Shown here: piece by piece, positions 1 through 59,555 of the stretch
How the letters are laid out: every line of letters starts with the position of its first letter
Numbering within the stretch: the stretch's first letter is position 1
Source of the DNA: Escherichia coli
GTDB lineage: Bacteria > Pseudomonadota > Gammaproteobacteria > Enterobacterales > Enterobacteriaceae
Length of the DNA stretch: 64,000 nt
Assembly (NCBI RefSeq): GCF_036507355.1
Contig: NZ_AP027877.1
Reading direction: 5' to 3' (one strand)
Made by a program: the position numbers and the translations under genes
The notes under the pieces: generated by a model
The model's database searches: none
The model's input: the letters and a program-made list of their open reading frames with translations, nothing else
Told to the model about the DNA's origin: nothing

Positions 1-643
1 CGCTGGGTACGCCAGTCGCGTTTAGTGGTTTTTCCGAGTCAGGGTCACGCATACGTAGTGCCAGCGCCAGTTTGTTCAGCGGCGCGAGTTCACGACCCAG
101 TAGTACCATCATGATGATTAACATAATCGGCAGTGCGACCAACCACGGGATCAATTGCCCGGCAACAATCGCCAGCGCCATGTCTTCACGGTATTCCCAT
201 TCCTGACCAACAACGATGCGATATTTGCCATCAGGTGAGGTCATCCAGACAAAACGCCATTGATCTTTATCGCCCACCAGTTGCCCGTCAGCAAAACCTT
301 CCCGTTGATAGCTATAGGGAATATCTTCTCCGTTATCGCCATCGTTAAGGACCATTCTGCCGTCGTGGGTAAAGATGGCAAAGGTCAGCGCATCGTCATC
401 AACATGACCGTGTTTTAATTTATTTGGCGTCTGTGCCATGCGATCCGCCGCGTTGATTTCGTTGAGATCGAGCGTACTTAACCGCTTGGCAAACAGCATC
501 AGTTGGGTGTCGAACAATTCATCGACGTTATCCGTTGTTTGTTTCCAGGCGACAAAGCTGGAAAGCAGCCAGGTCACCGAGGCCAGAATTAAAAAGATTA
601 GCGTCAGCCTGACGCGCAGACTAAGACGTTGGGTAAATTTCAT
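1..643 (-). CDS. qseC: Sensor histidine kinase QseC, N-terminal part (gene continues beyond window start)
   Basis: Reverse-strand reading begins [13 protein letters not shown]... from the ATG at 641-643, overlapping the qseB stop (ATGA); matches the QseC N-terminus from memory. Confidence 0.9.
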
Positions 644-1299
644 TTCTCACCTAATGTGTAGCCAATACCATGCACGGTACGAATAAAATCACTACCGAGT
701 TTGCGTCGCAGATGATGCACATGCACTTCAACGGCATTACTGGTGACCTCTTCGTCCCAGGTATACAGTTTCTCTTCAATCAGTTTGCGCGGCAGTACCC
801 GACCAGCGTTACGCATCAGTAATTCCAGCAGGGCAAATTCTTTTGGTTTCAGTGTTAAGGGTTCGCCAGCCAGCGTGGCGATACGTTTGCCGGGGTCGAG
901 CATGACGTTACCGTGGCGCAGCTCGTTGCTGGCCTGGCCGTTGGTTCGGCGCATCAGAGCTTCCAGCCTGGCGGCGACTTCTATCAACGCAAAAGGTTTA
1001 CACAGATAATCGTCAGCTCCCAGACGCAGCCCTTCTACACGTTCCTCCAGCGCATCGCGCGCGGTCAGGATCAGTACCGGCTCACGCTGACCTTTTTCTC
1101 GCCATTCGCGCAAAATATCGCGACCATCCATGCCTGGTAAGGTTAAATCCAGGATCACCGCATCATAAGGTGCGCTATAAAGCGCCTCTTTTCCCTGACG
1201 ACCTTGTGTAAACCAGTCGACGCTAAAACCCATTTTACTAAGGCCCGTTTTGATGCCGTCGCCAATCAGCATGTCATCTTCTATCAGTAAAATTCGCAT
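640..1299 (-). CDS. qseB: Two-component response regulator QseB (OmpR family)
   Basis: 219-aa [18 protein letters not shown]... with receiver-domain aspartates and a winged-helix C-terminus; recognised as QseB. Confidence 0.95.
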
Positions 1300-1450
1300 T
1301 TTTTCATCCCTGCGATAACCGTATTTGCTGCCAGTAAACCGTGTTGTAACGCGCTCTGTACAGCACTAAATTTTATTTTTTTCCCTTAAGAAGTTGTTAA
1401 GGACTATCTTGTTAAATGCTCGGAAACAGACATTAAAGGGAGTAATAAAC

Positions 1451-1843
1451 ATGAAAAAATTCGCAGCAGTAATCGCAGTAATGGCCCTGTGCAGCGCACC
1501 GGTGATGGCAGCAGAGCAGGGCGGTTTTTCTGGCCCATCGGCAACGCAAAGTCAGGCCGGAGGATTCCAGGGGCCGAACGGCAGCGTAACGACTGTAGAA
1601 AGCGCAAAATCCCTGCGTGACGACACCTGGGTAACCCTGCGCGGCAATATCGTTGAACGCATCTCTGACGATCTCTACGTGTTCAAAGATGCCAGCGGTA
1701 CTATCAATGTTGATATCGACCACAAACGCTGGAACGGCGTGACGGTGACGCCGAAAGATACGGTTGAGATTCAGGGTGAAGTCGATAAAGACTGGAATTC
1801 TGTTGAAATTGACGTCAAACAGATCCGCAAAGTAAATCCGTAA
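1451..1843 (+). CDS. ygiW: BOF/YgiW-family periplasmic stress protein
   Basis: ORF 1394-1843 trimmed to internal ATG giving MKKFAAVIAVMALCSAPVMA signal peptide; recognised as YgiW. Confidence 0.9.
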   Translation: MKKFAAVIAVMALCSAPVMAAEQGGFSGPSATQSQAGGFQGPNGSVTTVESAKSLRDDTWVTLRGNIVERISDDLYVFKDASGTINVDIDHKRWNGVTVTPKDTVEIQGEVDKDWNSVEIDVKQIRKVNP

Positions 1844-1895
1844 TTGTTACCGCTCCCGGGATGCGTTCCCGGGAATAATTTCGCAGGGAGGCAAA

Positions 1896-2378
1896 ATGAC
1901 AAACCTGACACTGGATGTAAACATTATCGATTTCCCATCAATCCCTGTGGCGATGTTGCCGCACCGCTGTAGCCCTGAGTTGCTCAACTACAGTGTGGCG
2001 AAATTTATCATGTGGCGTAAAGAGACGGGGCTTTCTCCTGTTAACCAAAGCCAGACTTTTGGCGTCGCCTGGGACGACCCTGCCACCACCGCACCGGAAG
2101 CGTTTCGCTTTGATATCTGCGGCAGCGTTAGCGAACCGATTCCCGATAATCGTTATGGTGTGAGCAATGGTGAACTTACCGGTGGACGTTATGCCGTGGC
2201 CCGCCACGTTGGCGAGCTGGACGATATTTCACACACGATATGGGGCATTATTCGCCACTGGCTGCCTGCAAGCGGCGAGAAAATGCGTAAAGCACCGATT
2301 CTGTTTCACTACACCAATCTTGCCGAAGGGGTGACGGAGCAGCGACTGGAAACGAATGTTTATGTGCCGTTAGCGTGA
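1896..2378 (+). CDS. ygiV: GyrI-like small-molecule-binding domain protein YgiV
   Basis: 160-aa ORF MTNLTLDVNIIDFPSIPVAMLPHR...; recognised as YgiV. Confidence 0.85.
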   Translation: MTNLTLDVNIIDFPSIPVAMLPHRCSPELLNYSVAKFIMWRKETGLSPVNQSQTFGVAWDDPATTAPEAFRFDICGSVSEPIPDNRYGVSNGELTGGRYAVARHVGELDDISHTIWGIIRHWLPASGEKMRKAPILFHYTNLAEGVTEQRLETNVYVPLA

Positions 2379-2486
2379 TGGGGAATCTTTACCGGAGTGT
2401 GAGCCAAATCACTCGCGATAAGTTTGAGCGAACAATGCCACAGGCGTATTGTTGTTGGGCTTATAATTTCTCCGGTAAGGAATACC

Positions 2487-4094
2487 ATGTATACGCGAAA
2501 TTTATTATGGCTGGTCAGCCTGGTAAGTGCGGCTCCTCTCTACGCTGCTGACGTTCCCGCCAACACACAGCTCGCCCCGCAACAAGTCTTTCGTTACAAC
2601 AATCATAGCGACCCAGGTACGCTCGACCCGCAAAAGGTGGAGGAGAATACTGCTGCGCAGATTGTGCTGGATCTGTTTGAAGGTCTGGTATGGATGGACG
2701 GTGAAGGCCAGGTGCAGCCCGCTCAGGCTGAACGCTGGGAGATACTGGACGGCGGCAAGCGCTATATTTTCCATCTGCGTAGCGGTTTGCAGTGGTCCGA
2801 CGGTCAGCCTCTGACGGCAGAGGATTTTGTCCTCGGCTGGCAGCGCGCGGTTGACCCGAAAACGGCAAGCCCTTTTGCTGGCTATCTGGCACAGGCGCAC
2901 ATTAACAATGCCGCGGCTATTGTTGCGGGTAAAGCAGATGTTACATCGCAGGGTGTCAAAGCGACGGATGATCGTACTCTTGAAGTTACGCTTGAGCAGC
3001 CGGTTCCTTGGTTCACGACGATGCTCGCCTGGCCGACGCTGTTCCCGGTTCCTCATCATGTCATCGCTAAACATGGCGATAGCTGGAGTAAGCCAGAGAA
3101 CATGGTTTACAACGGTGCCTTTGTGCTTGATCAGTGGGTAGTTAACGAAAAGATTACTGCACGCAAAAATCCAAAGTACCGCGATGCGCAACATACAGTA
3201 TTGCAACAGGTTGAGTATCTGGCGCTGGATAATTCGGTCACCGGCTATAACCGCTATCGCGCGGGAGAGGTCGATCTCACCTGGGTTCCGGCGCAGCAAA
3301 TTCCCGCCATTGAAAAATCACTGCCTGGCGAGCTACGAATTATTCCGCGTCTGAACAGCGAATATTACAACTTCAACCTTGAGAAACCGCCATTTAACGA
3401 TGTGCGAGTGCGTCGGGCGCTATATCTTACGGTTGATCGACAGCTTATTGCGCAAAAGGTACTGGGGTTGAGAACGCCCGCAACCACGCTGACGCCGCCA
3501 GAGGTAAAAGGCTTTAGCGCGACGAGGTTCGATGAACTGCAAAAGCCAATGAGTGAGCGCGTCGCGATGGCAAAAGCCTTGCTGAAACAGGCGGGATACG
3601 ACGCCTCTCATCCGCTACGCTTTGAGCTGTTCTACAACAAGTACGATCTGCATGAAAAGACCGCGATAGCGTTGTCTTCCGAATGGAAAAAATGGCTGGG
3701 TGCACAGGTGACGCTGCGCACAATGGAGTGGAAAACCTATCTTGATGCCCGACGAGCCGGTGATTTCATGCTGTCTCGGCAGTCGTGGGATGCGACGTAC
3801 AATGATGCTTCCAGCTTCCTGAACACGCTCAAAAGCGATAGTGAAGAAAACGTCGGTCACTGGAAAAATGCGCAGTATGACGCCTTACTAAACCAGGCCA
3901 CGCAGATCACTGATGCGACAAAGCGTAATGCGTTGTATCAGCAGGCAGAAGTGATCATCAACCAGCAGGCACCGCTGATTCCTATCTACTATCAGCCGTT
4001 AATCAAACTGCTTAAACCCTACGTTGGCGGTTTTCCGCTGCATAATCCCCAGGATTATGTCTACAGCAAAGAGTTGTATATCAAGGCACATTGA
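2487..4094 (+). CDS. ygiS: Periplasmic solute-binding protein YgiS (oligopeptide-binding family)
   Basis: ORF 2424-4094 trimmed to ATG at 2487 (MYTRNLLWLVSLVSAAPLYA signal peptide, AAGGA RBS upstream); 535 aa family 5 SBP. Confidence 0.9.
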   Translation: MYTRNLLWLVSLVSAAPLYAADVPANTQLAPQQVFRYNNHSDPGTLDPQKVEENTAAQIVLDLFEGLVWMDGEGQVQPAQAERWEILDGGKRYIFHLRSGLQWSDGQPLTAEDFVLGWQRAVDPKTASPFAGYLAQAHINNAAAIVAGKADVTSQGVKATDDRTLEVTLEQPVPWFTTMLAWPTLFPVPHHVIAKHGDSWSKPENMVYNGAFVLDQWVVNEKITARKNPKYRDAQHTVLQQVEYLALDNSVTGYNRYRAGEVDLTWVPAQQIPAIEKSLPGELRIIPRLNSEYYNFNLEKPPFNDVRVRRALYLTVDRQLIAQKVLGLRTPATTLTPPEVKGFSATRFDELQKPMSERVAMAKALLKQAGYDASHPLRFELFYNKYDLHEKTAIALSSEWKKWLGAQVTLRTMEWKTYLDARRAGDFMLSRQSWDATYNDASSFLNTLKSDSEENVGHWKNAQYDALLNQATQITDATKRNALYQQAEVIINQQAPLIPIYYQPLIKLLKPYVGGFPLHNPQDYVYSKELYIKAH

Positions 4095-4231
4095 TGCCTT
4101 TATCGCCGTCGGAGCACGTCCGGCGGCGCTATTCACGCTGATCTCCTGTGACTCGACGCGGCAGATAATGTAGTATCTCCGGCAATATTGCCCCTTTGAA
4201 GGCTGGCGAATAAGTTGAGGAATCAGAATTA

Positions 4232-6490
4232 ATGAGCGATATGGCAGAGCGCCTTGCGCTACATGAATTTACGGAAAACGCCTACTTAAACTACTCCATG
4301 TACGTGATCATGGACCGTGCGTTGCCGTTTATTGGTGATGGTCTGAAACCTGTTCAGCGCCGCATTGTGTATGCGATGTCTGAACTGGGCCTGAATGCCA
4401 GCGCCAAATTTAAAAAATCGGCCCGTACCGTCGGTGACGTACTGGGTAAATACCATCCGCACGGCGATAGCGCCTGTTATGAAGCGATGGTCCTGATGGC
4501 GCAGCCGTTCTCTTACCGTTATCCGCTGGTTGATGGTCAGGGGAACTGGGGCGCGCCGGACGATCCGAAATCGTTCGCGGCAATGCGTTACACCGAATCC
4601 CGGTTGTCGAAATATTCCGAGCTGCTATTGAGCGAGCTGGGGCAGGGGACGGCTGACTGGGTGCCAAACTTTGACGGCACTTTGCAGGAGCCGAAAATGC
4701 TACCTGCCCGTCTGCCAAACATTTTGCTTAACGGCACCACCGGTATTGCCGTCGGCATGGCGACCGATATTCCACCGCATAACCTGCGTGAAGTGGCTCA
4801 GGCGGCAATCGCATTAATCGACCAGCCGAAAACCACGCTCGATCAGCTGCTGGATATCGTGCAGGGGCCGGATTATCCGACTGAAGCGGAAATTATCACT
4901 TCGCGCGCCGAGATCCGTAAAATCTACGAGAACGGACGTGGTTCAGTGCGTATGCGCGCGGTGTGGAAGAAAGAAGATGGCGCGGTGGTTATCAGCGCAT
5001 TGCCGCATCAGGTTTCAGGTGCGCGCGTACTGGAGCAAATTGCTGCGCAAATGCGCAACAAAAAGCTGCCGATGGTTGACGATCTGCGCGATGAATCTGA
5101 CCACGAGAACCCGACCCGTCTGGTGATTGTGCCGCGTTCCAACCGCGTGGATATGGATCAGGTGATGAACCACCTCTTCGCTACCACCGATCTGGAAAAG
5201 AGCTATCGCATTAACCTCAATATGATCGGTCTGGATGGTCGTCCGGCGGTGAAAAACCTGCTGGAAATCCTCTCCGAATGGCTGGTGTTCCGCCGCGATA
5301 CCGTGCGCCGCCGACTGAACTATCGTCTGGAGAAAGTCCTCAAGCGCCTGCATATCCTCGAAGGTTTGCTGGTGGCGTTTCTCAATATCGACGAAGTGAT
5401 TGAGATCATTCGTAATGAAGATGAACCGAAACCGGCGCTGATGTCGCGGTTTGGCCTTACGGAAACCCAGGCGGAAGCGATCCTCGAACTGAAACTCCGT
5501 CATCTTGCCAAACTGGAAGAGATGAAGATTCGCGGTGAGCAGAGTGAGCTGGAAAAAGAGCGCGACCAGTTGCAGGGCATTTTGGCTTCCGAGCGTAAAA
5601 TGAATAACCTGCTGAAGAAAGAACTGCAGGCAGACGCGCAAGCCTACGGTGACGATCGTCGTTCGCCGTTGCAGGAACGCGAAGAAGCGAAAGCGATGAG
5701 CGAGCACGACATGCTGCCGTCTGAACCTGTCACCATTGTGCTGTCGCAGATGGGCTGGGTACGCAGCGCTAAAGGCCATGATATCGACGCGCCGGGCCTG
5801 AATTATAAAGCGGGTGATAGCTTCAAAGCGGCGGTGAAAGGTAAGAGCAACCAACCGGTAGTGTTTGTTGATTCCACCGGTCGTAGCTATGCCATCGACC
5901 CGATTACGCTGCCGTCGGCGCGTGGTCAGGGCGAGCCGCTCACCGGCAAATTAACGTTGCCGCCTGGGGCGACCGTTGACCATATGCTGATGGAAAGCGA
6001 CGATCAGAAACTGCTGATGGCTTCCGATGCGGGTTACGGTTTCGTCTGCACCTTTAACGATCTGGTGGCGCGTAACCGTGCAGGTAAGGCTTTGATCACC
6101 TTACCGGAAAATGCCCATGTTATGCCGCCGGTGGTGATTGAAGATGCTTCCGATATGCTGCTGGCAATCACTCAGGCAGGCCGTATGTTGATGTTCCCGG
6201 TAAGTGATCTGCCGCAGCTGTCGAAGGGCAAAGGCAACAAGATTATCAACATTCCATCGGCAGAAGCCGCGCGTGGCGAGGATGGTCTGGCGCAACTGTA
6301 CGTTCTGCCGCCGCAAAGCACGCTGACCATTCATGTTGGGAAACGCAAAATTAAACTGCGTCCGGAAGAGCTACAGAAAGTCACTGGCGAACGTGGACGC
6401 CGCGGTACGTTGATGCGCGGTTTGCAGCGTATCGATCGTGTTGAGATCGACTCTCCTCGCCGTGCCAGCAGCGGTGATAGCGAAGAGTAA
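4232..6490 (+). CDS. parC: DNA topoisomerase IV subunit A
   Basis: 752-aa [35 protein letters not shown]... recognised as ParC; GyrA-like fold with catalytic Tyr region. Confidence 0.97.
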
Positions 6491-6723
6491 TATGCCGGGG
6501 AGGGCGCTGTTTCCTCCCGCTTGCAAGGAACGCCGGATGAAACGTTAAGTCGTCATCCGGCAGCGTATTCAACCCCCGGAAACGATAAAAATTCCCTTGA
6601 AACCGTTGTTTATTCATGCGTTGCGATTAACAATACGCTTTTCCAGAGAGCGGCTTTTAACAATGCCCTAACCTGATTTCAGGTGACGTACAATGCCAGT
6701 CTCTCAGACCTTCAGAGGGTGTT

Positions 6724-7461
6724 ATGCTATATATCTTTCGTCTTATTATTACCGTGATTTACAGCATCTTAGTCTGTGTATTCGGCTCCATTTACTGCCT
6801 TTTTAGCCCGCGTAACCCGAAACATGTGGCCACCTTTGGGCATATGTTTGGTCGTCTTGCGCCGCTGTTCGGCCTGAAAGTTGAGTGCCGCAAACCTGCA
6901 GATGCTGAAAGCTACGGCAATGCTATCTATATCGCTAACCACCAGAACAACTATGACATGGTGACAGCATCGAACATTGTGCAACCGCCGACGGTGACGG
7001 TAGGTAAAAAGAGCTTGCTGTGGATCCCCTTCTTCGGGCAGTTGTACTGGTTAACCGGCAACTTATTGATCGACAGAAACAATCGCACTAAAGCTCACGG
7101 CACTATTGCGGAAGTAGTGAATCATTTCAAAAAACGCCGTATTTCCATTTGGATGTTCCCGGAAGGAACCCGCAGCCGTGGTCGCGGCCTGCTACCGTTC
7201 AAGACTGGAGCATTTCACGCGGCAATTGCAGCAGGCGTCCCGATTATTCCCGTGTGCGTCTCTACAACTTCGAATAAGATTAATCTTAATCGACTGCACA
7301 ACGGTCTGGTGATTGTCGAAATGCTGCCGCCAATTGACGTCAGTCAGTATGGCAAAGATCAGGTTCGTGAGCTGGCTGCCCATTGTCGTTCGATAATGGA
7401 ACAAAAAATCGCCGAGCTCGATAAAGAAGTCGCAGAACGCGAAGCCGCCGGAAAAGTTTAA
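6724..7461 (+). CDS. plsC: 1-acyl-sn-glycerol-3-phosphate acyltransferase
   Basis: 245-aa ORF with NHQNNYD (HX4D acyltransferase motif) and FPEGTRS motif; recognised as PlsC. Confidence 0.95.
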   Translation: MLYIFRLIITVIYSILVCVFGSIYCLFSPRNPKHVATFGHMFGRLAPLFGLKVECRKPADAESYGNAIYIANHQNNYDMVTASNIVQPPTVTVGKKSLLWIPFFGQLYWLTGNLLIDRNNRTKAHGTIAEVVNHFKKRRISIWMFPEGTRSRGRGLLPFKTGAFHAAIAAGVPIIPVCVSTTSNKINLNRLHNGLVIVEMLPPIDVSQYGKDQVRELAAHCRSIMEQKIAELDKEVAEREAAGKV

Positions 7462-7535: not shown

Positions 7536-8948
7536 ATGTCACTCAGTCGGCGTCAGTTCATTCAGGCATCGGGGATTGCACTTTGTGCAGGCGCTGTTCC
7601 CCTGAAGGCCAGCGCAGCCGGGCAACAGCAACCGCTACCCGTTCCGCCGCTGCTTGAATCTCGCCGTGGGCAACCGCTGTTTATGACTGTACAACGTGCG
7701 CACTGGTCATTTACGCCAGGGACACGCGCGTCGGTCTGGGGAATCAATGGTCGTTACCTGGGGCCGACTATCCGCGTCTGGAAGGGCGACGATGTTAAGC
7801 TTATTTACAGCAACCGCCTGACAGAAAATGTCTCAATGACGGTGGCCGGGCTACAGGTACCAGGTCCGCTGATGGGCGGTCCGGCACGGATGATGTCGCC
7901 AAACGCTGACTGGGCACCCGTACTGCCTATTCGCCAGAACGCAGCTACTCTGTGGTATCACGCCAATACTCCCAACCGCACGGCTCAGCAGGTCTATAAC
8001 GGCCTTGCCGGAATGTGGCTGGTGGAAGATGAAGTCAGCAAGTCGCTGCCTATCCCCAACCATTATGGTGTGGATGATTTTCCGGTCATTATCCAGGATA
8101 AACGGCTGGATAACTTTGGTACGCCAGAATACAACGAACCGGGAAGCGGCGGCTTTGTTGGTGATACGCTGCTGGTTAACGGTGTACAAAGCCCGTACGT
8201 TGAAGTCTCGCGTGGCTGGGTGCGCTTGCGACTGCTGAACGCGTCGAACTCTCGTCGCTATCAACTACAGATGAGCGATGGTCGCCCGTTACATGTGATT
8301 TCTGGCGATCAGGGATTCCTGCCTGCTCCTGTATCGGTGAAGCAACTTTCGTTGGCACCGGGCGAGCGCCGCGAGATTCTGGTGGATATGAGCAACGGTG
8401 ATGAAGTGTCGATCACCTGTGGCGAAGCGGCGAGCATTGTTGATCGTATTCGTGGCTTCTTTGAGCCATCCAGCATTCTGGTTTCTACCCTGGTGCTAAC
8501 GCTGCGCCCAACCGGCCTTCTGCCGCTGGTCACAGACAGTCTTCCGATGCGCCTGCTGCCAACTGAAATCATGGCCGGTTCGCCGATTCGCAGTCGCGAT
8601 ATCAGTCTGGGTGATGACCCGGGTATTAATGGACAACTGTGGGACGTCAACCGTATTGATGTCACCGCGCAGCAAGGAACGTGGGAACGCTGGACGGTAC
8701 GCGCGGACGAGCCGCAAGCGTTCCATATTGAAGGCGTGATGTTCCAGATCCGTAACGTGAATGGTGCGATGCCGTTCCCGGAAGACAGAGGCTGGAAAGA
8801 TACCGTTTGGGTTGACGGACAAGTGGAGCTGCTTGTTTATTTCGGTCAGCCTTCCTGGGCGCACTTCCCGTTCTACTTCAACAGTCAGACGCTGGAAATG
8901 GCGGACCGTGGCTCGATTGGGCAACTGTTAGTCAATCCGGTACCGTAA
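7536..8948 (+). CDS. ftsP: Cell division protein FtsP (SufI), Tat-exported multicopper-oxidase-like
   Basis: 470-aa ORF starting MSLSRRQFIQASGIALCAGA (twin-arginine signal); recognised as FtsP/SufI. Confidence 0.95.
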   Translation: MSLSRRQFIQASGIALCAGAVPLKASAAGQQQPLPVPPLLESRRGQPLFMTVQRAHWSFTPGTRASVWGINGRYLGPTIRVWKGDDVKLIYSNRLTENVSMTVAGLQVPGPLMGGPARMMSPNADWAPVLPIRQNAATLWYHANTPNRTAQQVYNGLAGMWLVEDEVSKSLPIPNHYGVDDFPVIIQDKRLDNFGTPEYNEPGSGGFVGDTLLVNGVQSPYVEVSRGWVRLRLLNASNSRRYQLQMSDGRPLHVISGDQGFLPAPVSVKQLSLAPGERREILVDMSNGDEVSITCGEAASIVDRIRGFFEPSSILVSTLVLTLRPTGLLPLVTDSLPMRLLPTEIMAGSPIRSRDISLGDDPGINGQLWDVNRIDVTAQQGTWERWTVRADEPQAFHIEGVMFQIRNVNGAMPFPEDRGWKDTVWVDGQVELLVYFGQPSWAHFPFYFNSQTLEMADRGSIGQLLVNPVP

Positions 8949-37799: not shown

Positions 37800-39149
37800 T
37801 TGGCGGGTTTTAACATCAAACATTGGTTTGCAGATGGCGCGTTTCGCACCATTATTCGCAATAGCGCCTGGTTAGGCTCCAGTAATGTCGTGAGCGCCTT
37901 GCTGGGTCTGTTGGCGCTCTCGTGTGCCGGTAAAGGGATGACGCCCGCCATGTTTGGCGTACTGGTGATTGTGCAATCGTACGCCAAGTCGATCAGCGAT
38001 TTTATTAAGTTTCAGACATGGCAGCTGGTGGTTCAGTACGGAACACCAGCATTAACCAACAATAATCCGCAGCAATTTCGCAATGTCGTCTCATTTTCCT
38101 TCTCGCTGGATATCGTCAGCGGCGCGGTGGCGATTGTCGGCGGCATTGCCTTACTGCCATTCCTTTCCCATTCATTAGGTCTGGATGACCAAAGCTTTTG
38201 GCTGGCGGCGCTGTATTGCACGTTCATTCCTTCAATGGCTTCCTCCACGCCGACCGGCATTCTGCGTGCGGTAGATCGCTTTGATTTGATTGCTGTACAG
38301 CAGGCGACGAAACCTTTTCTGCGCGCAGCGGGGAGCGTCGCAGCCTGGTATTTTGACTTTGGTTTTGCGGGTTTTGTTATTGCCTGGTACGTGTCGAATC
38401 TGGTTGGCGGCACCATGTACTGGTGGTTTGCCGCGCACGAATTACGCCGCAGAAATATCCATAACGCCTTCAAATTGAATCTGTTTGAGTCTGCCCGACA
38501 CATTAAAGGCGCGTGGAGTTTTGTCTGGTCAACCAACATTGCCCACTCCATCTGGTCGGCGCGTAACTCGTGCAGCACAGTGTTGGTGGGGATCGTGTTA
38601 GGACCCGCTGCCGCCGGGTTATTTAAAATCGCCATGACATTCTTCGATGCCGCCGGAACGCCAGCGGGTTTGCTGGGTAAAAGTTTTTACCCAGAGGTGA
38701 TGCGTTTAGATCCGCGCACCACCAGACCGTGGTTGTTAGGCGTGAAGTCCGGTTTACTGGCGGGCGGAATCGGTATTCTGGTGGCGCTCGCGGTGTTGAT
38801 CGTCGGCAAGCCGCTCATTTCGCTGGTGTTTGGCGTTAAGTATCTCGAAGCGTATGACCTGATTCAGGTGATGCTGGGCGCAATTGTGATCTCGATGCTG
38901 GGTTTCCCGCAGGAGTCATTGCTATTGATGGCGGGAAAACAGCGCGCTTTTCTCGTGGCGCAAACCATCGCCTCAATCGGCTACATCGTATTGCTGTTCA
39001 TGTTCTGTCATCTGTTTGGTGTGCTGGGAGCAGCGTTTGCTTACTTCGGTGGGCAATGTCTGGACGTGGCGCTCTCGTTAATTCCAACCTTAAAGGCATT
39101 TTTTCAGCGCCATTCCTTGCTTTATAACGCAGCCGGAGAGAAATCCTGA
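37800..39149 (+). CDS. yghQ: Polysaccharide-biosynthesis/MOP-flippase-family inner membrane protein YghQ (apparently full length)
   Basis: 449-codon ORF from a TTG at 37800 (true start may be an internal ATG); highly hydrophobic multi-TM protein; I recall K-12 YghQ as shorter. Confidence 0.8.
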   Translation: MAGFNIKHWFADGAFRTIIRNSAWLGSSNVVSALLGLLALSCAGKGMTPAMFGVLVIVQSYAKSISDFIKFQTWQLVVQYGTPALTNNNPQQFRNVVSFSFSLDIVSGAVAIVGGIALLPFLSHSLGLDDQSFWLAALYCTFIPSMASSTPTGILRAVDRFDLIAVQQATKPFLRAAGSVAAWYFDFGFAGFVIAWYVSNLVGGTMYWWFAAHELRRRNIHNAFKLNLFESARHIKGAWSFVWSTNIAHSIWSARNSCSTVLVGIVLGPAAAGLFKIAMTFFDAAGTPAGLLGKSFYPEVMRLDPRTTRPWLLGVKSGLLAGGIGILVALAVLIVGKPLISLVFGVKYLEAYDLIQVMLGAIVISMLGFPQESLLLMAGKQRAFLVAQTIASIGYIVLLFMFCHLFGVLGAAFAYFGGQCLDVALSLIPTLKAFFQRHSLLYNAAGEKS

Positions 39150-39973
39150 TGATGAGAAAATATTTCCCGCTTGAGGCGAGCGAGCATCTATTTGTTGCGA
39201 TTGAGGAAGATGATGTTGTTGATGCCCAGGTCAGTTTGCCGCCGACTATCGCACTAAGTTGTACCACCGAAATCATCCATGATAATTACGCGTTATGCCT
39301 GCAATTCTGGCTCAATGGCGTTGATCGTCAGGAATTACTTCGTTTAATTCGCAAACAAGCCAAAGGCGATGAGCTGACGACAGACGAGCGTAAACAGTTT
39401 AAATACATGCGAGCGCGCTACAAGCATCTACGTTTTGCACAACGGCTGTATTTAAAAAAGCATCAGGCCAGATTTTTATTCGGCAAAACGACCGTTTTTC
39501 TGGGACGTTTTCAGGACGGATTTCGTAACGGTAAGAAAAATATTGTGTCGTATTACGGCAACCTGTTACGAATTTATTTAAGCTCTCCGGTCTGGTCGTT
39601 GGTGAACTATTCATTACGCCATAGCCAGTTAGAAAGCGTAAGCGGTTTTATTGCCTATCGGCAAAAGCAAATGCATACCCTGAAAGAGATTATTGCCAAA
39701 CCGCGACTAACCGGCAGGGAATTTCATGATGTGCGAAAAATCATCAGCCAGCAGGTTTCTTATTACGACACCTTAAGATCGCTTGATCCTGAAAATAAAG
39801 AGGCGTTACAGATTTCCCGTTTCCTCGCCGCCATTAATGGCCTGATGGGGGATCAACACGACGACATGGTGGCGGATGATATGGAAAACCGCCAGTCGTA
39901 TGATGCACCGGTGGCGCTGGATAGCGATATTCGCCAGCGCTTAGAGCTGCTGATTTCGCGTTTTCCGCTATAA
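39149..39973 (+). CDS. Hypothetical basic protein (274 aa), no family recognised
   Basis: ATG overlaps the yghQ stop (TGATG), implying translational coupling; ORF MMRKYFPLEASEHLFVAIEEDDVV...; within a same-strand gene array. Confidence 0.65.
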   Translation: MMRKYFPLEASEHLFVAIEEDDVVDAQVSLPPTIALSCTTEIIHDNYALCLQFWLNGVDRQELLRLIRKQAKGDELTTDERKQFKYMRARYKHLRFAQRLYLKKHQARFLFGKTTVFLGRFQDGFRNGKKNIVSYYGNLLRIYLSSPVWSLVNYSLRHSQLESVSGFIAYRQKQMHTLKEIIAKPRLTGREFHDVRKIISQQVSYYDTLRSLDPENKEALQISRFLAAINGLMGDQHDDMVADDMENRQSYDAPVALDSDIRQRLELLISRFPL

Positions 39974-39981
39974 CCGGAGCA

Positions 39982-40545
39982 ATGATGTCATCTCGTTTGA
40001 TTATTGCGCTGATTATCATGCTCTTAGCCCCGGGTGTGCAGGCACACAATTTCGTCACTGGCAAAACGGTTACCCCTGTTTATATTCAGGAAGGCGGCGA
40101 GCTGCTTCTGAATAGCGACGACGAAATTCACTACCAAAAGTGGAACAGCACACAATTGGCGGGAAAAGTCCGAATTATCCAGTATATCGCCGGGCGTAAG
40201 TCGGCGAAGAAAAAGAACTCACTGTTAATTAAAGCGGTTGAAGCGGCAAACTTTCCGCAGGATCGTTTTCAGCCCACCACCATTGTGAACACCGATGATG
40301 CCATCTTTGGTACTGGCTATTTTGTTGTTGGCAAAATCGAAAAAAATAAACGCCACTATCCGTGGGCGCAATTCGTTATTGACGGCAATGGACAGGGACG
40401 CGTTGCCTGGCGCTTGCCGGAGCAGAGTTCAACCATTCTGGTGCTGAATAAAGCCGGGCAAATTCAGTGGGCAAAGGACGGCAGCCTGACGCCGGAAGAG
40501 GTAGATCATGTTATTGCGCTGGCGCAGAAACTGATCAATGAATAA
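39982..40545 (+). CDS. YtfJ-family periplasmic protein (paralog of E. coli YtfJ)
   Basis: 187-aa ORF with signal peptide; HNFVTGKTVTPVYIQEGGELLLNSDDEIHYQKWNSTQLAGKVRIIQYIAGR closely parallels my recollection of the YtfJ sequence. Confidence 0.7.
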   Translation: MMSSRLIIALIIMLLAPGVQAHNFVTGKTVTPVYIQEGGELLLNSDDEIHYQKWNSTQLAGKVRIIQYIAGRKSAKKKNSLLIKAVEAANFPQDRFQPTTIVNTDDAIFGTGYFVVGKIEKNKRHYPWAQFVIDGNGQGRVAWRLPEQSSTILVLNKAGQIQWAKDGSLTPEEVDHVIALAQKLINE

Positions 40546-40575
40546 AAAATTCAAAGGATTGAGGGCGTTAGTGAG

Positions 40576-41646
40576 ATGAAGCTGGTTGAACACTACATCA
40601 TGCGTGGTACGCGCCGTCTGGTGCTGATTATCGTCGGTTTTCTGATCTTTATTTTCGCCAGCTACTCCGCACAGCGTTATCTGACCGAAGCGGCAAATGG
40701 GACATTAGCTCTTGATGTTGTGCTGGATATCGTTTTCTACAAAGTGCTGATTGCACTGGAGATGTTGTTACCTGTTGGTCTGTATGTGTCAGTTGGCGTG
40801 ACGCTAGGGCAGATGTATACCGACTCGGAAATTACCGCTATCTCTGCGGCGGGGGGCAGTCCGGGACGCTTGTACAAAGCCGTTCTTTATCTGGCGATAC
40901 CGCTAAGTATTTTTGTCACCCTTCTGTCGATGTATGGTCGTCCGTGGGCTTATGCGCAGATTTATCAACTGGAGCAGCAGTCGCAGTCGGAGCTGGATGT
41001 TCGCCAGTTGCGGGCAAAGAAATTTAACACTAACGATAACGGACGAATGATCCTTTCGCAGACGGTTGATCAGGATAATAATCGCCTGACTGACGCGCTG
41101 ATTTATACTTCTACTGCCAATCGAACCCGCATTTTCCGCGCCCGTTCGGTTGATGTGGTTGACCCATCACCCGAGAAACCGACCGTTATGTTGCACAACG
41201 GCACTGCCTATCTTCTCGATCATCAGGGGCGTGACGACAACGAACAGATCTACCGTAATCTGCAATTACATCTGAATCCGCTGGATCAAAGCCCTAACGT
41301 CAAACGCAAAGCGAAATCGGTCACGGAGCTGGCGCGCTCCGTCTTTCCAGCCGATCATGCCGAACTGCAATGGCGACAAAGCCGTGGCCTGACCGCATTG
41401 TTGATGGCGCTGCTGGCCATTTCATTAAGTCGGGTAAAACCGCGGCAAGGGCGATTTTCAACATTATTGCCACTGACGTTGCTGTTTATTGCCATTTTTT
41501 ATGGCGGCGACGTCTGCCGTACGCTGGTGGCTAACGGCGCGATTCCCCTCATTCCTGGTTTGTGGTTAGTACCCGGACTCATGCTAATGGGCCTGCTGAT
41601 GCTGGTCGCACGCGACTTCTCTTTGCTGCAGAAATTTTCCCGATGA
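40576..41646 (+). CDS. LptF/LptG-family (YjgP/YjgQ) permease paralog 1
   Basis: 356-aa ORF; N-terminal TM segments; region LEMLLPVGLYVSVGVTLGQMYTDSEITAISAAG parallels the LptF motif [29 protein letters not shown] recalled from memory. Confidence 0.8.
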   Translation: MKLVEHYIMRGTRRLVLIIVGFLIFIFASYSAQRYLTEAANGTLALDVVLDIVFYKVLIALEMLLPVGLYVSVGVTLGQMYTDSEITAISAAGGSPGRLYKAVLYLAIPLSIFVTLLSMYGRPWAYAQIYQLEQQSQSELDVRQLRAKKFNTNDNGRMILSQTVDQDNNRLTDALIYTSTANRTRIFRARSVDVVDPSPEKPTVMLHNGTAYLLDHQGRDDNEQIYRNLQLHLNPLDQSPNVKRKAKSVTELARSVFPADHAELQWRQSRGLTALLMALLAISLSRVKPRQGRFSTLLPLTLLFIAIFYGGDVCRTLVANGAIPLIPGLWLVPGLMLMGLLMLVARDFSLLQKFSR

Positions 41647-42722
41647 ATGTTTTCAGTCGCTATTTAATCCGTCATCTCTTTCTCGGTTTTGCCGCCGCCG
41701 CAGGGCTATTGCTGCCGCTTTTTACCACCTTCAACCTGATTAACGAACTGGATGATGTCAGCCCGGGCGGTTATCGCTGGACTCAGGCGGTGCTGGTGGT
41801 GCTAATGACCTTACCGCGCACACTTGTCGAACTTTCGCCATTTATCGCCTTATTGGGAGGGATTGTCGGCCTGGGGCAGCTATCGAAAAACAGTGAGCTT
41901 ACCGCCATTCGCAGCACGGGGTTTTCTATCTTCCGTATTGCACTGGTGGCGCTGGTTGCCGGGATATTGTGGACTGTTTCGTTAGGCGCGATAGATGAGC
42001 GGGTAGCGTCGCCATTGCAGCAACAGGCGCTGCAAATCAAATCGACCGCCACCGCGTTGGGGGAGGACGATGACATTACCGGCAATATGCTGTGGGCCAG
42101 GCGCGGCAATGAATTTGTGACGGTGAAATCGCTGAATGAGCAGGGCCAGCCTGTGGGCGTGGAGATTTTTCATTATCGTGACGATCTCTCGCTCGAATCC
42201 TACATTTATGCACGCAGTGCCACCATTGAAGACGACAAAACGTGGATCCTGCATGGTGTGAATCATAAAAAATGGCTGAATGGCAAAGAAACGCTGGAAA
42301 CATTAGATAATCTTGCCTGGCAATCGGCCTTCACCAGTATGGATCTTGAAGAGCTATCGATGCCGGGGAATACTTTTTCTGTCCGTCAGCTTAATCATTA
42401 CATCCATTATTTGCAGGAAACCGGGCAACCCAGCAGCGAATACCGCCTTGCACTGTGGGAAAAACTGGGGCAACCCATCCTGACCCTGGCGATGATTTTG
42501 CTGGCTGTGCCGTTTACCTTTAGCGCCCCGCGCTCGCCAGGGATGGGTAGCCGTCTCGCTGTAGGCGTCATCGTTGGCTTACTCACCTGGATCAGCTATC
42601 AAATCATGGTCAATTTGGGATTGCTATTTGCGTTAAGCGCACCTGTTACCGCGCTCGGTTTACCGATAGCGTTTGTGCTGGTGGCGTTGAGCCTGGTGTA
42701 TTGGTATGACAGACAACATTAA
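41643..42722 (+). CDS. LptF/LptG-family (YjgP/YjgQ) permease paralog 2
   Basis: ORF 41562-42722 trimmed to ATG 41643 (MNVFSRYLIRHLFLGF..., 359 aa) overlapping the upstream stop (ATGA); same architecture as paralog 1. Confidence 0.8.
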   Translation: MNVFSRYLIRHLFLGFAAAAGLLLPLFTTFNLINELDDVSPGGYRWTQAVLVVLMTLPRTLVELSPFIALLGGIVGLGQLSKNSELTAIRSTGFSIFRIALVALVAGILWTVSLGAIDERVASPLQQQALQIKSTATALGEDDDITGNMLWARRGNEFVTVKSLNEQGQPVGVEIFHYRDDLSLESYIYARSATIEDDKTWILHGVNHKKWLNGKETLETLDNLAWQSAFTSMDLEELSMPGNTFSVRQLNHYIHYLQETGQPSSEYRLALWEKLGQPILTLAMILLAVPFTFSAPRSPGMGSRLAVGVIVGLLTWISYQIMVNLGLLFALSAPVTALGLPIAFVLVALSLVYWYDRQH

Positions 42723-42723
42723 A

Positions 42724-42750
42724 CCCGCCGTGGCGCAACACCACGGCGGG
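42724..42750. terminator. Hairpin between convergent operons (putative bidirectional terminator)
   Basis: CCCGCCGTGG-CGCAACA-CCACGGCGGG perfect 10-bp stem in the 34-bp gap between the two convergent stops. Confidence 0.5.
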
Positions 42751-42756
42751 CTCACA

Positions 42757-43929
42757 TTACTGCTTCAGAGTAGCAAATGCCTGAATGATGGCATCGATTT
42801 GCTCACGACTGTGGGCAGCGTTTACGCTACAGCGCAGCAGCGTGATGCCTGCAGGCGCGGCAGGTGGCAGGATAAGATTCACATAAACGCCCAGCGAAAT
42901 AAGCTCGCGCCAGATGCGTAAACCTTCCTCTTTCGAACCGATTATTACCGGCACTACCGGACTAATATGTGAACTTAACTCATAACTCAGCTTTTGCAGC
43001 CCGTCATACAGATGGTTGGCATTATCCATCAGTTTTTGCCGCAACTCTGGTTGAGTGGCAATGGTTCTTAACGACGAGCGCACGGTTGCAATGCAGGAAG
43101 GAGAAGGGGAGGCGGTAAAAATATACGGACGACTGCCGTAGCGCAGCACTTCCATCGCTTCCGAACCCACGGCAAAACCACCAATAGAAGCCAGGCTTTT
43201 ACTGAAGGTGCCAACGATAATATCCACATCATCTTCAACGCCAACGGCTTCAACCAGCCCGCGCCCCGTTGCGCCTAACACGCCAAACGAGTGAGCTTCA
43301 TCGACAATTAAATATCCGCCGAGACGACGTTTGATATCAACAATTTCCGCCAGCGGCGCAACGTCACCGAGCATACTGTAGATGCCCTCAACGATGATAA
43401 TCGCCTCTTTCGCCCGTTCACCGAGGCGAACCATGCGCCGTTCCAGATCTTTAGCATCGTTATGGCGGAAACGAATAATTTCCGCGCCACCGAGAGAACA
43501 GGCGTCATAAATACTGGCGTGGCTGTCAGCATCCAGTAACACCACGGCGTTATGGTCGGCAAGTGCGCTGATGACGCCTAAATTAGCGGTATAACCGGTT
43601 GAAAAAACGATAGCGGTAGGGCGATTGAAAAACTCAGCAATCTCTTTCTCTAACGCCAGATGCGGCGCATAACTGCCGTTTGCCATACGAGAACCGGTGG
43701 TGCCGGTGCCTTGGGCCGCTAACGCTGCCTGACCTTCGGCGATGGCATCATGATTGAAGGTTAATCCGAGATAATTATTGGTCCCGGCCAGAATCACTTT
43801 TTTATTGCCGATCCGGCCTTCGGTGGCGGAATACACTTCATCAATACAGGTGCCAAACGGTGTTAACCCGTTGTCACTAAATTGCAGACGCTCGCCAGCA
43901 AGGCGCGCATATTTATCGTATAGCCCCAT
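42757..43929 (-). CDS. PLP-dependent alpha-oxoamine synthase, serine-palmitoyltransferase-like
   Basis: 390-aa ORF; DEAHSFGVLG and GTFSKSLASIGGF (PLP-lysine motif of the AONS/SPT/KBL family); ATG overlaps the stop of the upstream ACP gene. Confidence 0.85.
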   Translation of the reverse strand: MGLYDKYARLAGERLQFSDNGLTPFGTCIDEVYSATEGRIGNKKVILAGTNNYLGLTFNHDAIAEGQAALAAQGTGTTGSRMANGSYAPHLALEKEIAEFFNRPTAIVFSTGYTANLGVISALADHNAVVLLDADSHASIYDACSLGGAEIIRFRHNDAKDLERRMVRLGERAKEAIIIVEGIYSMLGDVAPLAEIVDIKRRLGGYLIVDEAHSFGVLGATGRGLVEAVGVEDDVDIIVGTFSKSLASIGGFAVGSEAMEVLRYGSRPYIFTASPSPSCIATVRSSLRTIATQPELRQKLMDNANHLYDGLQKLSYELSSHISPVVPVIIGSKEEGLRIWRELISLGVYVNLILPPAAPAGITLLRCSVNAAHSREQIDAIIQAFATLKQ

Positions 43930-44177
43930 TATTTATTCTCCAGCCATGGAAGTAGAGTTTCCATTAATTGCGCAGGGGTTTTGACATCCAGCAGAATATT
44001 AATAGGAATGGAAATATCGAATCTGTCTTCCAGCATCATTAAGAGATCCATCACTTTGATCGACTCCAGGCCAAGATCGTTGACGAGATCGCTGTCGGGC
44101 TTAATTTCCACACCGTTTTCGACCAAATCCTGTAAACAGGAAAGGATGTAATCCATTACTATTTCACGATTTACCAT
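43929..44177 (-). CDS. Acyl carrier protein (dedicated, non-AcpP)
   Basis: 82-aa acidic ORF with DLGLESIKVMDL phosphopantetheine-attachment-type serine motif. Confidence 0.8.
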   Translation of the reverse strand: MVNREIVMDYILSCLQDLVENGVEIKPDSDLVNDLGLESIKVMDLLMMLEDRFDISIPINILLDVKTPAQLMETLLPWLENK

Positions 44178-44208
44178 AGAAACGTTAACACACCTTTAAA
44201 CAAGACAA

Positions 44209-45123
44209 TCAAAATAGCCCGTTGCGTAATGCGTGTTCCAGGCTAATCCCGGGAAACCAATTAATATCTTCAGAAATACGGTTATTACTTGCCGACCAGT
44301 CGGCGTGGGTTAATTCACGAATTTTCGAGCGGGTCAGCATAGGTTCTTTACCTGCCAGGCGACTCAACGCGGTACTGATATCCGCAAGGCAGGTGAGTAC
44401 CGGCAGAGGAATGCCAACCATTCGCACGGAACCACAACGGGCGTCGGCGGCAAGTTGCTGTACGCGTTGCCAGTCATAGCCGCCAGCGACGCCATCGCAT
44501 AATTCATAGGTTTGCGTCTGTACAGTTTCGGCGCTTAACCACTGACCCACTGCTTGCGCAAAATCGGTGACATGCAGGAAAGAGAGCTGTGTATCTGGTG
44601 CACCAAGTCGTGGCAGCAGGCCGCGCAGCATCCAGTCAAACAGCGGTTTTAACTCTTTATCGCCGGGACCATACACGGCTGTCGGGCGAAAAACGCCCAG
44701 CGTAATTTCGTCAGCCATTGCCGTCAGCCGTTGTTCGGCGACGTGTTTGGAATTTGCGTACCAGGAGAGCTCGGGATGGCGCGCCGCCAGCGAAGAGATA
44801 AACAGAAAACGTTGGCAAAAGCCGCTCTCTTTTGCTGCTTGCATCAGGCGCAGGCTGCCGTCAACGTTACAGTGGGTAAAAATCTCTTCTTTGTGTCCGC
44901 GCACTTGCCCGGCGCAATGGACCACCGCGCTGGCTCCGGCAACCAGTTCGCTAAGCGAATGTGTATCTTCCAGCGAACCGCGCACCCAAGTAAGATTATC
45001 ATTGACGTGAGCGCGGGCAGTACGCGTCAATGCGCGAACGTGAAAGCCGCGGGCGAGCAGGTTATCGATAATATATTTACCGATAAAACCGGTAGCGCCC
45101 GTCACCGCGACAGTTTGATTCAT
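44209..45123 (-). CDS. NAD(P)-dependent epimerase/dehydratase-family (extended SDR) reductase
   Basis: 304-aa ORF; N-terminal VTGATGFIGKYI Rossmann motif; YANSK (YxxxK) catalytic motif; start overlaps the upstream stop (ATGA). Confidence 0.8.
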   Translation of the reverse strand: MNQTVAVTGATGFIGKYIIDNLLARGFHVRALTRTARAHVNDNLTWVRGSLEDTHSLSELVAGASAVVHCAGQVRGHKEEIFTHCNVDGSLRLMQAAKESGFCQRFLFISSLAARHPELSWYANSKHVAEQRLTAMADEITLGVFRPTAVYGPGDKELKPLFDWMLRGLLPRLGAPDTQLSFLHVTDFAQAVGQWLSAETVQTQTYELCDGVAGGYDWQRVQQLAADARCGSVRMVGIPLPVLTCLADISTALSRLAGKEPMLTRSKIRELTHADWSASNNRISEDINWFPGISLEHALRNGLF

Positions 45124-46841
45124 GCCAGGGATTCCTGCACATGAAGGCTTGCAGCATAAGCCTTCTGATAACGTTTTTTCGCTTCCGCACGGGCAGGCTT
45201 GCCGGAGGACGTTCGGGGAATGCTGTGGGGCGGCAACAGATCGATAGCCGCGGTCACGCCAAATTCGCTTTGGATCCGTGCTGCCAGCGCGTGGATAAGC
45301 TGCCCGCGACGTTCTTCATCGCTGATCCGACACTGGATCTGCAAAATGATTTTTTCCTGGACGGTAACAAAAGCAATCGCATCGCCAGAATGAATTTCCG
45401 GTTCCTGTTCCGCTATATATTCAATATCCTGCGGCCAGATATTACGGCCACGAATAATAATCAGATCTTTAATGCGTCCGGTGACATACAGATAACCATC
45501 CAGCAGATAACCGAGGTCGCCAGTGTCTAACCAGCCCGTCGCGGCAATCTCGTCTTGCGAAGCCTGGTCGCCAAAGTAACCGCTCATCAGACTGGGACCG
45601 GAGATGCAAATATGGCCTACCACACGTTCCGCGACCGGCATACCTGCTTGATTGCGGATTTCAATACCATGTTCCGGCAACGCTTTGCCGCAGTTGACGA
45701 AAGTCGATACGGCGCGTGTCTCTGCACCCGGCGCGACGGCTTTACCCTGATATTCGAGGATGTCGCGATCCACTTCGTTAACTACAACCCCGGAGGCTTC
45801 ATCAGAGAAGCTGACAGCCAGCGCATTTTCTGCCAGGCCGTAGCACGGCATGAAAGTTTTATCGTCAAAGTTAACCTGACGGAAACATTCAGCGAATTGA
45901 TGGAGTTGTTCTGCGGAGATGGGTTCTGCACCAATACCAGCGACGCGCCAGCAGGAAAGATCCAGTTCAGCGAGATCTTTTTCATTCACGCGGCGCTGGC
46001 ACAATTCATAGCCAAACGGCGGCGCAACGGAAACGGTGCCGCGATTTTTACTGATCAATTTAAGCCATTGCAGAGGACGCATGGCAAAATCCTGAGTGCG
46101 CAAATAATCTACTGAAAGTTGCGTGGCGACGGGGGTCAGGAGAAAGCCGACCAGTCCCATATCATGGTAGAAAGGCAGCCAGGAGACGCAGCGGTCGCCA
46201 GGGCGTAATTTAATGCCGTCGTGGCTTATAGCACGTAGATTAGCCATCACTTCGCGATGGGTGATAATGACGCCACGGGGAAAACGGGTGCTGCCGGAGG
46301 TGTACTGGAGGTAGGCGATATCGTTCGGAACTGGACGCTGGAGCGCAACATCGGCTTCCGGTAATGCCTTAAACCAGGCGTGGCTTAAAACATGTAATTC
46401 GGGGTTGTCATGCGTCGCGGCATTGACCAGTGGCAACCACTCATCACCAGTGATAATGGCTGCGGGCTGGCAACTTGTCAGTAAACCCTGCAATTTGGCG
46501 CTCCAGGAATCCCGCTGACCAACGCCCATTGGAATCGCCAACGGGACGGCGACTAAGCCGGCATACTGGCAGGCAAAAAAAGCCTCTACGAACCCGCTAC
46601 TTGTTTCGGCAATCAGTGCCACGCGATCGCCTTTTTTCAGGTTCAGCGATAACAACCGCTTCGCACCAGCTTCGGCACGCGCTTTTAACGTCTGATATTC
46701 CAGTTGATCTTCAAGTTGGCAACGTCTGTCATAAAAATTCATTCCAGCGCTACTCAGAGCGGCGTAGTCCAAAGCATCAACCAGCGTTGGAAAATCGGCA
46801 TAGCGTATAGGTAGGGAATGCGTAAAGATTTTATTAGACAT
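45120..46841 (-). CDS. Fatty acyl-AMP ligase / acyl-ACP synthetase (adenylate-forming enzyme)
   Basis: ORF 45120-46850 (GTG) trimmed to ATG 46839-46841 (MSNKIFTHSL...); AMP-binding core motifs YTSGSTRFPRGV and TGDLGY...GRIKDLIIIRGRNI. Confidence 0.85.
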   Translation of the reverse strand: MSNKIFTHSLPIRYADFPTLVDALDYAALSSAGMNFYDRRCQLEDQLEYQTLKARAEAGAKRLLSLNLKKGDRVALIAETSSGFVEAFFACQYAGLVAVPLAIPMGVGQRDSWSAKLQGLLTSCQPAAIITGDEWLPLVNAATHDNPELHVLSHAWFKALPEADVALQRPVPNDIAYLQYTSGSTRFPRGVIITHREVMANLRAISHDGIKLRPGDRCVSWLPFYHDMGLVGFLLTPVATQLSVDYLRTQDFAMRPLQWLKLISKNRGTVSVAPPFGYELCQRRVNEKDLAELDLSCWRVAGIGAEPISAEQLHQFAECFRQVNFDDKTFMPCYGLAENALAVSFSDEASGVVVNEVDRDILEYQGKAVAPGAETRAVSTFVNCGKALPEHGIEIRNQAGMPVAERVVGHICISGPSLMSGYFGDQASQDEIAATGWLDTGDLGYLLDGYLYVTGRIKDLIIIRGRNIWPQDIEYIAEQEPEIHSGDAIAFVTVQEKIILQIQCRISDEERRGQLIHALAARIQSEFGVTAAIDLLPPHSIPRTSSGKPARAEAKKRYQKAYAASLHVQESLA

Positions 46842-46850
46842 ATACACCAC

Positions 46851-47211
46851 GAAAAAATTGGATATCCAAAATAAAATGACAATAATGCGGTGGATTATAT
46901 AGGCATAAAAGATAAATGAGATAGTATTTTCATCGGTGTGAAAATGAACATTGATTTAAATAATGAGTTTAAGTTTTTTGTTTTTATTGTGAATGATATT
47001 TAATTTATGAATATATTAAGAAGAAGCCTTGTCCGGTCGCCTTAAATCGACAAAAGGCATTGTGGCGCTTCTGCGTAGTCGCTGACCCTATCGTAATCAT
47101 TAATAAATACTATTTATTCGTCGTTTGTATTCATTGGGTTGATTATTAAGATGCCGTTCGTTGCTGTTGCAACCTGTTTTTCACCGTTAATTATTTGTTA
47201 TCCACAGAACT
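46851..47211. promoter_or_regulatory. AT-rich divergent promoter region between the FAAL operon and yghO
   Basis: 361-bp noncoding stretch, visibly AT-rich with A/T tracts (e.g. TTTAAATAATGAGTTTAAGTTTTTTGTTTTTATTGTGAATGATATTTAATTTATGAATATATTAAG), flanked by divergent starts. Confidence 0.4.
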
Positions 47212-57810: not shown

Positions 57811-57850
57811 GCCGGATGAAGGTAAATATCATCCGGCTTTCCATTTGTTT
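57811..57850 (+). terminator. Rho-independent terminator after glcA
   Basis: Hairpin GCCGGATGA-AGGTAAATA-TCATCCGGC followed by TTTCCATTTGTTTG. Confidence 0.6.
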
Positions 57851-58170
57851 GTCGTTTATCTCGCCAGGGAACCGTTTTTACGATTGGCTTCTTAATACAT
57901 AGTCTCCGTTTTACAATGCAAATTGTTTAATATTTATACGTCTGAGCTTCTGTGCTGGTTATAAAGCACCCACTTTCATGAGATCAATTTTAGTATGTTA
58001 TTACATTGCTACGTCTGTTCTTTTCATGACGAATGGCGTTTTTTCTCTTGTTTGTATTTTTCACGAGAGCAATGAGCAGATCAAAATTCCCAAAAACATA
58101 AGATTATTCGCAATGAATCGCCACGGGTTTAACAGACACCTCAGAGTCATTTAAGATGGCTTAAAGAGAG

Positions 58171-59324: not shown

Positions 59325-59339
59325 ATTACCCGTGGCGAT

Positions 59340-59555
59340 TCAGTCATCAGTAATTACGCTGTCATCCAGTTTCGCATAACAGATACTGTCATCACCGGCT
59401 TCAATATAGCTGGAAAAATTCTCACTGATGAAGCGGTAGAAAAGGGCACCGAGTACATACTGTTTAAAATCCCATCCATCTACGGAGCCTCTGACATCAT
59501 TGGCAATGGCCCAGATTTGGCGGTGTAGCTCTGCACGCTGCTGAAGGCTTGTCAT
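59340..59555 (-). pseudogene. hsdM: Truncated type I restriction-modification methyltransferase (hsdM) N-terminal remnant
   Basis: 71-codon ORF MTSLQQRAELHRQIWAIANDVRGSVDGWDFKQYVLGALFYRFISENFSSYIEAGDDSI... matches the N-terminus of type IC HsdM (EcoR124-like) as I recall it, then runs directly into the IS right end. Confidence 0.7.

Follow-up and report, generated by a model that had tools for sequence, protein, structure and literature searches.

The 108-bp gap between ygiV and ygiS in the E. coli chromosome examined here is best understood as the ancestral, never-occupied form of the site at which the K-12 lineage gained the mqsR-mqsA (mqsRA) toxin-antitoxin (TA) cassette, and the strain as one that lacks this system, a reading to which we assign a probability of roughly 0.88. 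The analysis concerns a 64,000-bp stretch of contig NZ_AP027877.1 (assembly GCF_036507355.1), referred to throughout as the window. An initial annotation had described the gap as an empty site, and the comparisons presented here refine that description, in that the empty state of the locus is the ancestral one and the one found in most genomes, and not a loss.

The left end of the window carries qseC' on the - strand, followed by qseB, ygiW, ygiV, ygiS, and parC, and then by plsC and ftsP (Table 1). The left flanking gene ends with a TGA stop codon at 2376-2378, its product shares 98.75% amino-acid identity with K-12 YgiV, and it is also annotated as ygiV in TUM13936, the closest complete genome. 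On the right, ygiS is intact, begins with an ATG at 2487, and encodes a protein with 99.4% amino-acid identity to K-12 YgiS. The distance of 108 bp given in the initial annotation is exact (2379-2486), and its statement that the gap contains no open reading frames (ORFs) stands in substance: mechanical calling places three ORFs across the gap, one of 42 aa at 2360-2488 (- strand), one of 58 aa at 2375-2551 (+ strand), and a version of ygiS extended to a TTG, and nothing there qualifies as a credible gene, an RNA family, or an MqsA operator. Neither the 42-aa nor the 58-aa ORF has a Pfam match, PGAP annotates no feature in the same gap of TUM13936, the K-12 record contains no annotation within the 101 bp of the gap that the two strains share, and an Rfam search over window positions 1300-4300 at E<=1 matched no RNA family.

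Table 1. Features of the ygiV-ygiS locus and of the distal end of the window (positions are those of the window).
Feature	Position	Strand	Description	Evidence
qseB	640-1299	-		
ygiW	1451-1843	+		
ygiV	1896-2378	+	GyrI-like domain protein, 160 aa; left flank	ORF list; Pfam GyrI-like, E 1.9e-36
ygiV-ygiS intergenic region	2379-2486		Unoccupied mqsRA site, 108 bp	K-12 alignment; same junction in other genomes
GGGAA	2381-2385		Exact insertion point; five bases replaced by the 927-bp mqsRA cassette in K-12	
ygiS leader	2386-2482	+	Identical in K-12	Alignment, inverted repeat, RNA fold
ygiS	2487-4094	+	SBP_bac_5, family-5 periplasmic solute-binding protein, 535 aa; right flank	ORF list; Pfam, E 3e-84
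parC	4232-6490	+		
IS3-family element	58171-59324			
GmrSD_N/DUF262 restriction-like protein	59759-61636	-		
HTH+WYL regulator	62068-62781	-		
DUF3944 protein	62884-63633	-		

The annotation record of K-12 MG1655 gives the gene order ygiS (b3020), mqsA (b3021), mqsR (b3022), ygiV (b3023), ygiW, qseB, and qseC. The mqsR-mqsA pair of K-12 (ygiU-ygiT, b3022-b3021) therefore has a chromosomal address that is common to the window, with near-identical flanks, and what the window lacks relative to the K-12 locus are mqsR, mqsA, the operator palindromes, and the terminators of the cassette. By pairwise alignment the window follows K-12 up to position 2380, two bases beyond the ygiV stop, at which point 927 bp in K-12 stand against GGGAA in the window (2381-2385); the 101 bp that follow, up to the ygiS ATG (2386-2486), are 100% identical in K-12 by both alignment and blastn. 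The BLAST blocks obtained against K-12, which cover window positions 1-2380 and 2386-38868, agree with this 927-versus-5-bp alignment, and when the K-12 cassette together with ygiS was used as the query, matches in empty-site genomes began at query base 928. The flanks are collinear and align without other gaps, and the two alleles differ only by the cassette, as is expected of an occupied and an unoccupied form of one site. The statement in the initial annotation that K-12 carries mqsRA (ygiUT) between ygiV and ygiS is borne out by the K-12 record, and the alignment places the pair exactly at this junction.

Genes for an MqsR-family toxin (PF15723) or an MqsA-family antitoxin (PF15731) were not found anywhere in the 64-kb window, for which the best tblastn hits had E-values of 0.63 and 0.8, respectively. 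When the K-12 intergenic region was compared with the window using blastn, only the shared 101 bp were matched and no remnant of the cassette was detected. Operators were defined as MqsA palindromes of the form ACCT-N3-AGGT, two copies of which lie in the autoregulated K-12 promoter, and a search for the operator AACCTTTTAGGT allowing up to one mismatch returned 0 matches in the window.

The ancestral state of the junction was assessed from outgroups, for which a YgiV scan of species-representative genomes yielded five loci, belonging to E. albertii, E. whittamii, Escherichia sp. MOD1-EC7003, Escherichia sp. E1V33, and SCPM-O-B-8794; this set contains no E. fergusonii, Salmonella, or Citrobacter. 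In all five, qseB-ygiW-ygiV is directly followed by ygiS, or by internally deleted remnants of ygiS, and then by parC, and neither MqsR nor MqsA was found in any of them, such that the junction is uninterrupted throughout this small sample. Conservation extends to the junction sequence itself, which reads TGAnGGGGA(A)TCTTTACCGGAG in E. albertii, E. whittamii, and further divergent Escherichia. Empty-site alleles from O157:H7, O55:H7, Nissle 1917, CFT073, E. albertii, and E. whittamii likewise have the same contiguous ygiV-ygiS junction as the window, with point differences only.

The GGGAA bases of the window bear directly on the proposal that the cassette was deleted, precisely or nearly so, from a K-12-like allele in the lineage of the window strain. 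Toxin-antitoxin loci do decay and disappear, and IS1 insertions into mqsR are found in some genomes, which lends the proposal some general plausibility. However, GGGAA is present in the window and in the outgroup species and is missing from K-12, and a deletion cannot recreate bases that its starting allele does not contain; precise excision from a K-12-like allele therefore cannot yield the window. The window also retains no trace of the cassette. We consider deletion to be effectively refuted by the junction alignment and give it next to no weight.

We determined the frequency of each state of the locus among 5,426 complete RefSeq E. coli genomes. The mqsRA genes are present in 2,298 of these (42%), in every case at an identity of at least 99% and never on a plasmid record of the set, and an uninterrupted empty junction, detected with a 120-bp probe centred on the window junction, occurs in 3,112 (57%), including O157:H7 strains that are 100% identical over the probe. 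The characterization of the gap as the empty site of a variable accessory module is upheld by these two counts. The state seen in the window, an empty site next to an intact ygiS, accounts for roughly 1,715-1,756 genomes, or about 32%.

A second alternative is that mqsRA, or a divergent pair of the MqsRA family, is encoded elsewhere in the genome of the strain, outside the window. MqsR-family pairs do occur on plasmids of other Enterobacterales, and a 354-kb E. coli plasmid record contains a copy at 99% identity. Against such a relocation, K-12-type mqsRA was found on 0 plasmid records of the 5,426-genome set, and a probe spanning the end of ygiV and the start of mqsR identified an intact ygiV-mqsR junction in 2,289 of the 2,298 mqsRA genomes. 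At most nine of the 2,298 copies are thus located elsewhere or disrupted, with IS1-disrupted examples visible among them, including IS1 in mqsR, so that ectopic copies must be very rare. At blastn sensitivity, divergent copies with 65-99% nucleotide identity were found in 0 of the 5,426 genomes, where the search returned a single spurious match of 32 bp, and the 64-kb window itself contains nothing of the kind. We therefore regard relocation as very unlikely, and the population statistics indicate that the strain very probably lacks MqsR, an mRNA interferase, and MqsA, its antitoxin and repressor, outside the window as well; beyond the 64 kb, the exclusion of an ectopic or divergent mqsRA is a statistical one. 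The plasmid copy mentioned above is a 99% identical mqsR at 56244-56537 of NZ_MG591698.1 (354 kb, E. coli), and it is the only plasmid-borne K-12-type copy that we encountered. A further "plasmid" match, NZ_CP141089.1, is 4.9 Mb in length, evidently a chromosomal sequence deposited under a plasmid label.

The cassette that distinguishes the K-12 allele is 927 bp long (positions 7821 to 8747 of the K-12 locus, L001). It opens with a terminator-like hairpin, continues with the mqsRA promoter, in which two MqsA palindromes lie, and then with mqsR and mqsA, and has a further hairpin at its 3' end. The promoter region spans approximately 200 bp and contains two ACCT-TTT-AGGT MqsA operators (repeat family D1). 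K-12 MqsR matches PF15723 with an E-value of 5.5e-35, and K-12 MqsA matches PF15731, which combines a zinc-binding N-domain with an HTH, with an E-value of 7.2e-56. The terminator-like hairpin (L001 8691-8709, - strand) is located 38 bp beyond the stop codon of ygiV and consists of TGGCGC-TACTAAT-GCGCCA with a T-rich tail, and in the alignment the cassette closes after mqsA with a second, GC-rich hairpin and a T-run. With a hairpin at both of its ends, the cassette appears to be transcriptionally insulated on both sides.

Several properties of the cassette point to a foreign origin. Its GC content is 41.1%, versus 52-55% for ygiW, ygiV, ygiS, and parC, and its diversity is low, with all cassette copies at least 99% identical as opposed to 93-100% identity for the flanks. 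MqsR-family toxins with 57-68% identity are encoded on plasmids of Rahnella, Rouxiella, Pectobacterium, Yersinia, Burkholderia, and others, and this occurrence on plasmids of several genera shows that the family is mobile. A near-identical donor copy of mqsRA outside E. coli was not found. Repeat searches and the alignment revealed no target-site duplication, terminal inverted repeats, or att-like repeat pairing the two ends of the K-12 cassette, and the five ancestral bases at the insertion point are replaced and not duplicated, unlike the outcome of insertion by a transposon, integron, or integrase. Taken together, the outgroup junctions, the GGGAA bases, the low GC content and low diversity of the cassette, and the plasmid-borne relatives make a single foreign acquisition within E. 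coli the best reading of the data. The K-12 lineage would have gained a self-contained, AT-rich cassette of 927 bp two bases after the ygiV stop, with replacement of five bases, and this one mqsRA allele would then have spread within the species at the same site, probably through descent and through homologous recombination via the conserved flanks.

The same recombination raises the possibility of a secondary loss, in which the lineage once had mqsRA and empty-site DNA then overwrote the locus by homologous recombination, so that the form now present is ancestral but re-acquired. The mqsRA genes occur in very different backgrounds, such as K-12, ETEC H10407, O145, and O121, and their identity of at least 99% across these implies that recombination carries alleles of the locus from one lineage to another, in which case exchange in the reverse direction is equally possible. 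Arguing against a loss of this kind, the closest complete genomes among the matches listed (TUM13936, O55:H7, and O157:H7, at 99.3-99.4% identity over 25 kb) all have the uninterrupted arrangement or an identical junction. Identity to K-12 is also similar on the two sides of the site, at 99.0% over window positions 1-2380 versus 98.7% over the next 36 kb, and no recombination patch is evident. We judge a secondary loss to be improbable, although less so than relocation, and favour a site that was never occupied.

As the first base of the leader stem described here coincides with the exact end of the K-12 cassette, the two alleles share an identical ygiS leader. The leader is bounded by a 12-13-nt inverted repeat (I2), TCTTTACCGGAG at 2386-2397 and CTCCGGTAAGGA at 2470-2481, which forms the base of a long predicted hairpin and would pair the ygiS Shine-Dalgarno sequence AAGGA at 2477-2481. 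The predicted RNA fold has a free energy of -40.8 kcal/mol (z -3.47), and 0 of 200 shuffled sequences were as stable. Four Escherichia species retain the basal stem, a covariation test across them identified no compensatory changes, and the evidence for the structure is thus that of energy and conservation. The hairpin may serve as a translational control element.

A perfect TATAAT at 2462-2467 was read from the sequence as a candidate ygiS promoter, and a strict sigma-70 scan of the gap returned no promoter on the + strand. In the terminator scan of the gap, a weak terminator-like structure with a 5-bp stem (2435-2447) was the only result. Given that there is no strong terminator between ygiV and ygiS in the window, ygiW-ygiV transcripts may read into ygiS in this strain, whereas in K-12 two hairpins lie between these genes.

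The locus has a third state. In 1,357 of the 5,426 E. coli genomes (25%), ygiS is replaced by a single-copy filler of 236 bp that extends from codon 8 almost to the ygiS stop; in the example from AMSHJX01 (L002) the filler occupies positions 6614-6849, and the equivalent of window positions 2509 to approximately 4062 is absent. BLAST identified the filler as the 3' end of a group II intron through its 93% identity to the terminal part of a full, ltrA-bearing copy in strain Z1323CEC0003, and Rfam at the gathering threshold left it unmatched in the AMSHJX01 locus. Different internal deletions of ygiS are found in Escherichia sp. MOD1-EC7003 (L003 5556-5922) and Escherichia sp. E1V33 (L005 3719-4140), both of which are without mqsRA. 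These two lineages have lost parts of ygiS independently of each other, and its loss is therefore recurrent in the genus.

The states of mqsRA and ygiS are strongly associated across the genome set. The mqsRA junction is empty in 1,356 of the 1,357 genomes that lack ygiS, and all 2,298 mqsRA genomes cover at least 80% of a probe made of the cassette plus ygiS, from which it follows that mqsRA genomes keep most or all of ygiS. One interpretation is that the absence of mqsRA and the loss of ygiS are functionally linked: if MqsR truly lowers ygiS in bile stress, an unregulated ygiS could be a burden that strains without the toxin shed time and again, and the window strain would represent an intermediate state. 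We think such a link unlikely. The co-occurrence agrees with ygiS being either dispensable or costly where MqsR is absent, and it agrees equally well with shared ancestry, in which a single lineage without mqsRA deleted ygiS once.

Two other regions of the window differ from K-12. The first, of about 8.4 kb (38869-47251), is absent from K-12, which has an IS5 element (insH9) there between yghQ and yghO; in the window it encodes a full-length yghQ-like polysaccharide flippase, a YtfJ-like protein, two LptF/LptG-like permeases, a class I/II aminotransferase, an NAD-dependent epimerase, and an AMP-binding ligase. The K-12 arrangement at this position looks like an IS5-associated deletion. The second region, at 57847-64000 beyond glcA, has no match to the yghJ/type II secretion region of K-12 and contains a 109-aa ORF in addition to the last four features of Table 1. 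This region may be a small defence islet.

The polymorphism of mqsRA is already known, and what is reported here is the correct recognition of an ordinary variable locus. The type II TA loci of E. coli, mqsRA included, have been reviewed as unevenly distributed accessory genes, with no TA locus common to MG1655, W, EDL933, and UTI89 (PMC7167474), and strain NRG857c has been reported to lack MqsRA (PMC7232551). Horizontal transfer of chromosomal TA loci is the subject of Fiedoruk et al. 2015 and of Ramisetty & Santhosh 2016, as these are cited in PMC7167474 and PMC5120126. Other chromosomal TA loci of E. coli that vary by presence or absence have been described as horizontally acquired and are likewise small, self-contained, AT-rich, two-gene cassettes located between conserved genes and patchily distributed; we see no specific difference between these and the mqsRA locus, which is one example of a described pattern.

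The principal consequence, a modest one, concerns the use of K-12 as a reference, as K-12 represents the derived state at this locus. Results obtained with MqsR and MqsA in K-12, including those on biofilm, persistence, bile tolerance, and ghoST control, are not transferable to the window strain, and the same applies to the empty-site majority of sequenced E. coli (57%), which, on the reading favoured here, never had mqsRA. The adjacency of mqsRA and ygiS has been discussed by Fraikin et al. 2019 (PMC6918082), and that article describes as not reproduced the action of MqsR on ygiS mRNA in bile stress that Kwan et al. 2015 had claimed. For this contested link between MqsR, ygiS, and bile, a description of the locus as having three states, with counts for each and the co-occurrence of mqsRA and ygiS, is mildly useful when considered in a phylogeny-aware manner.
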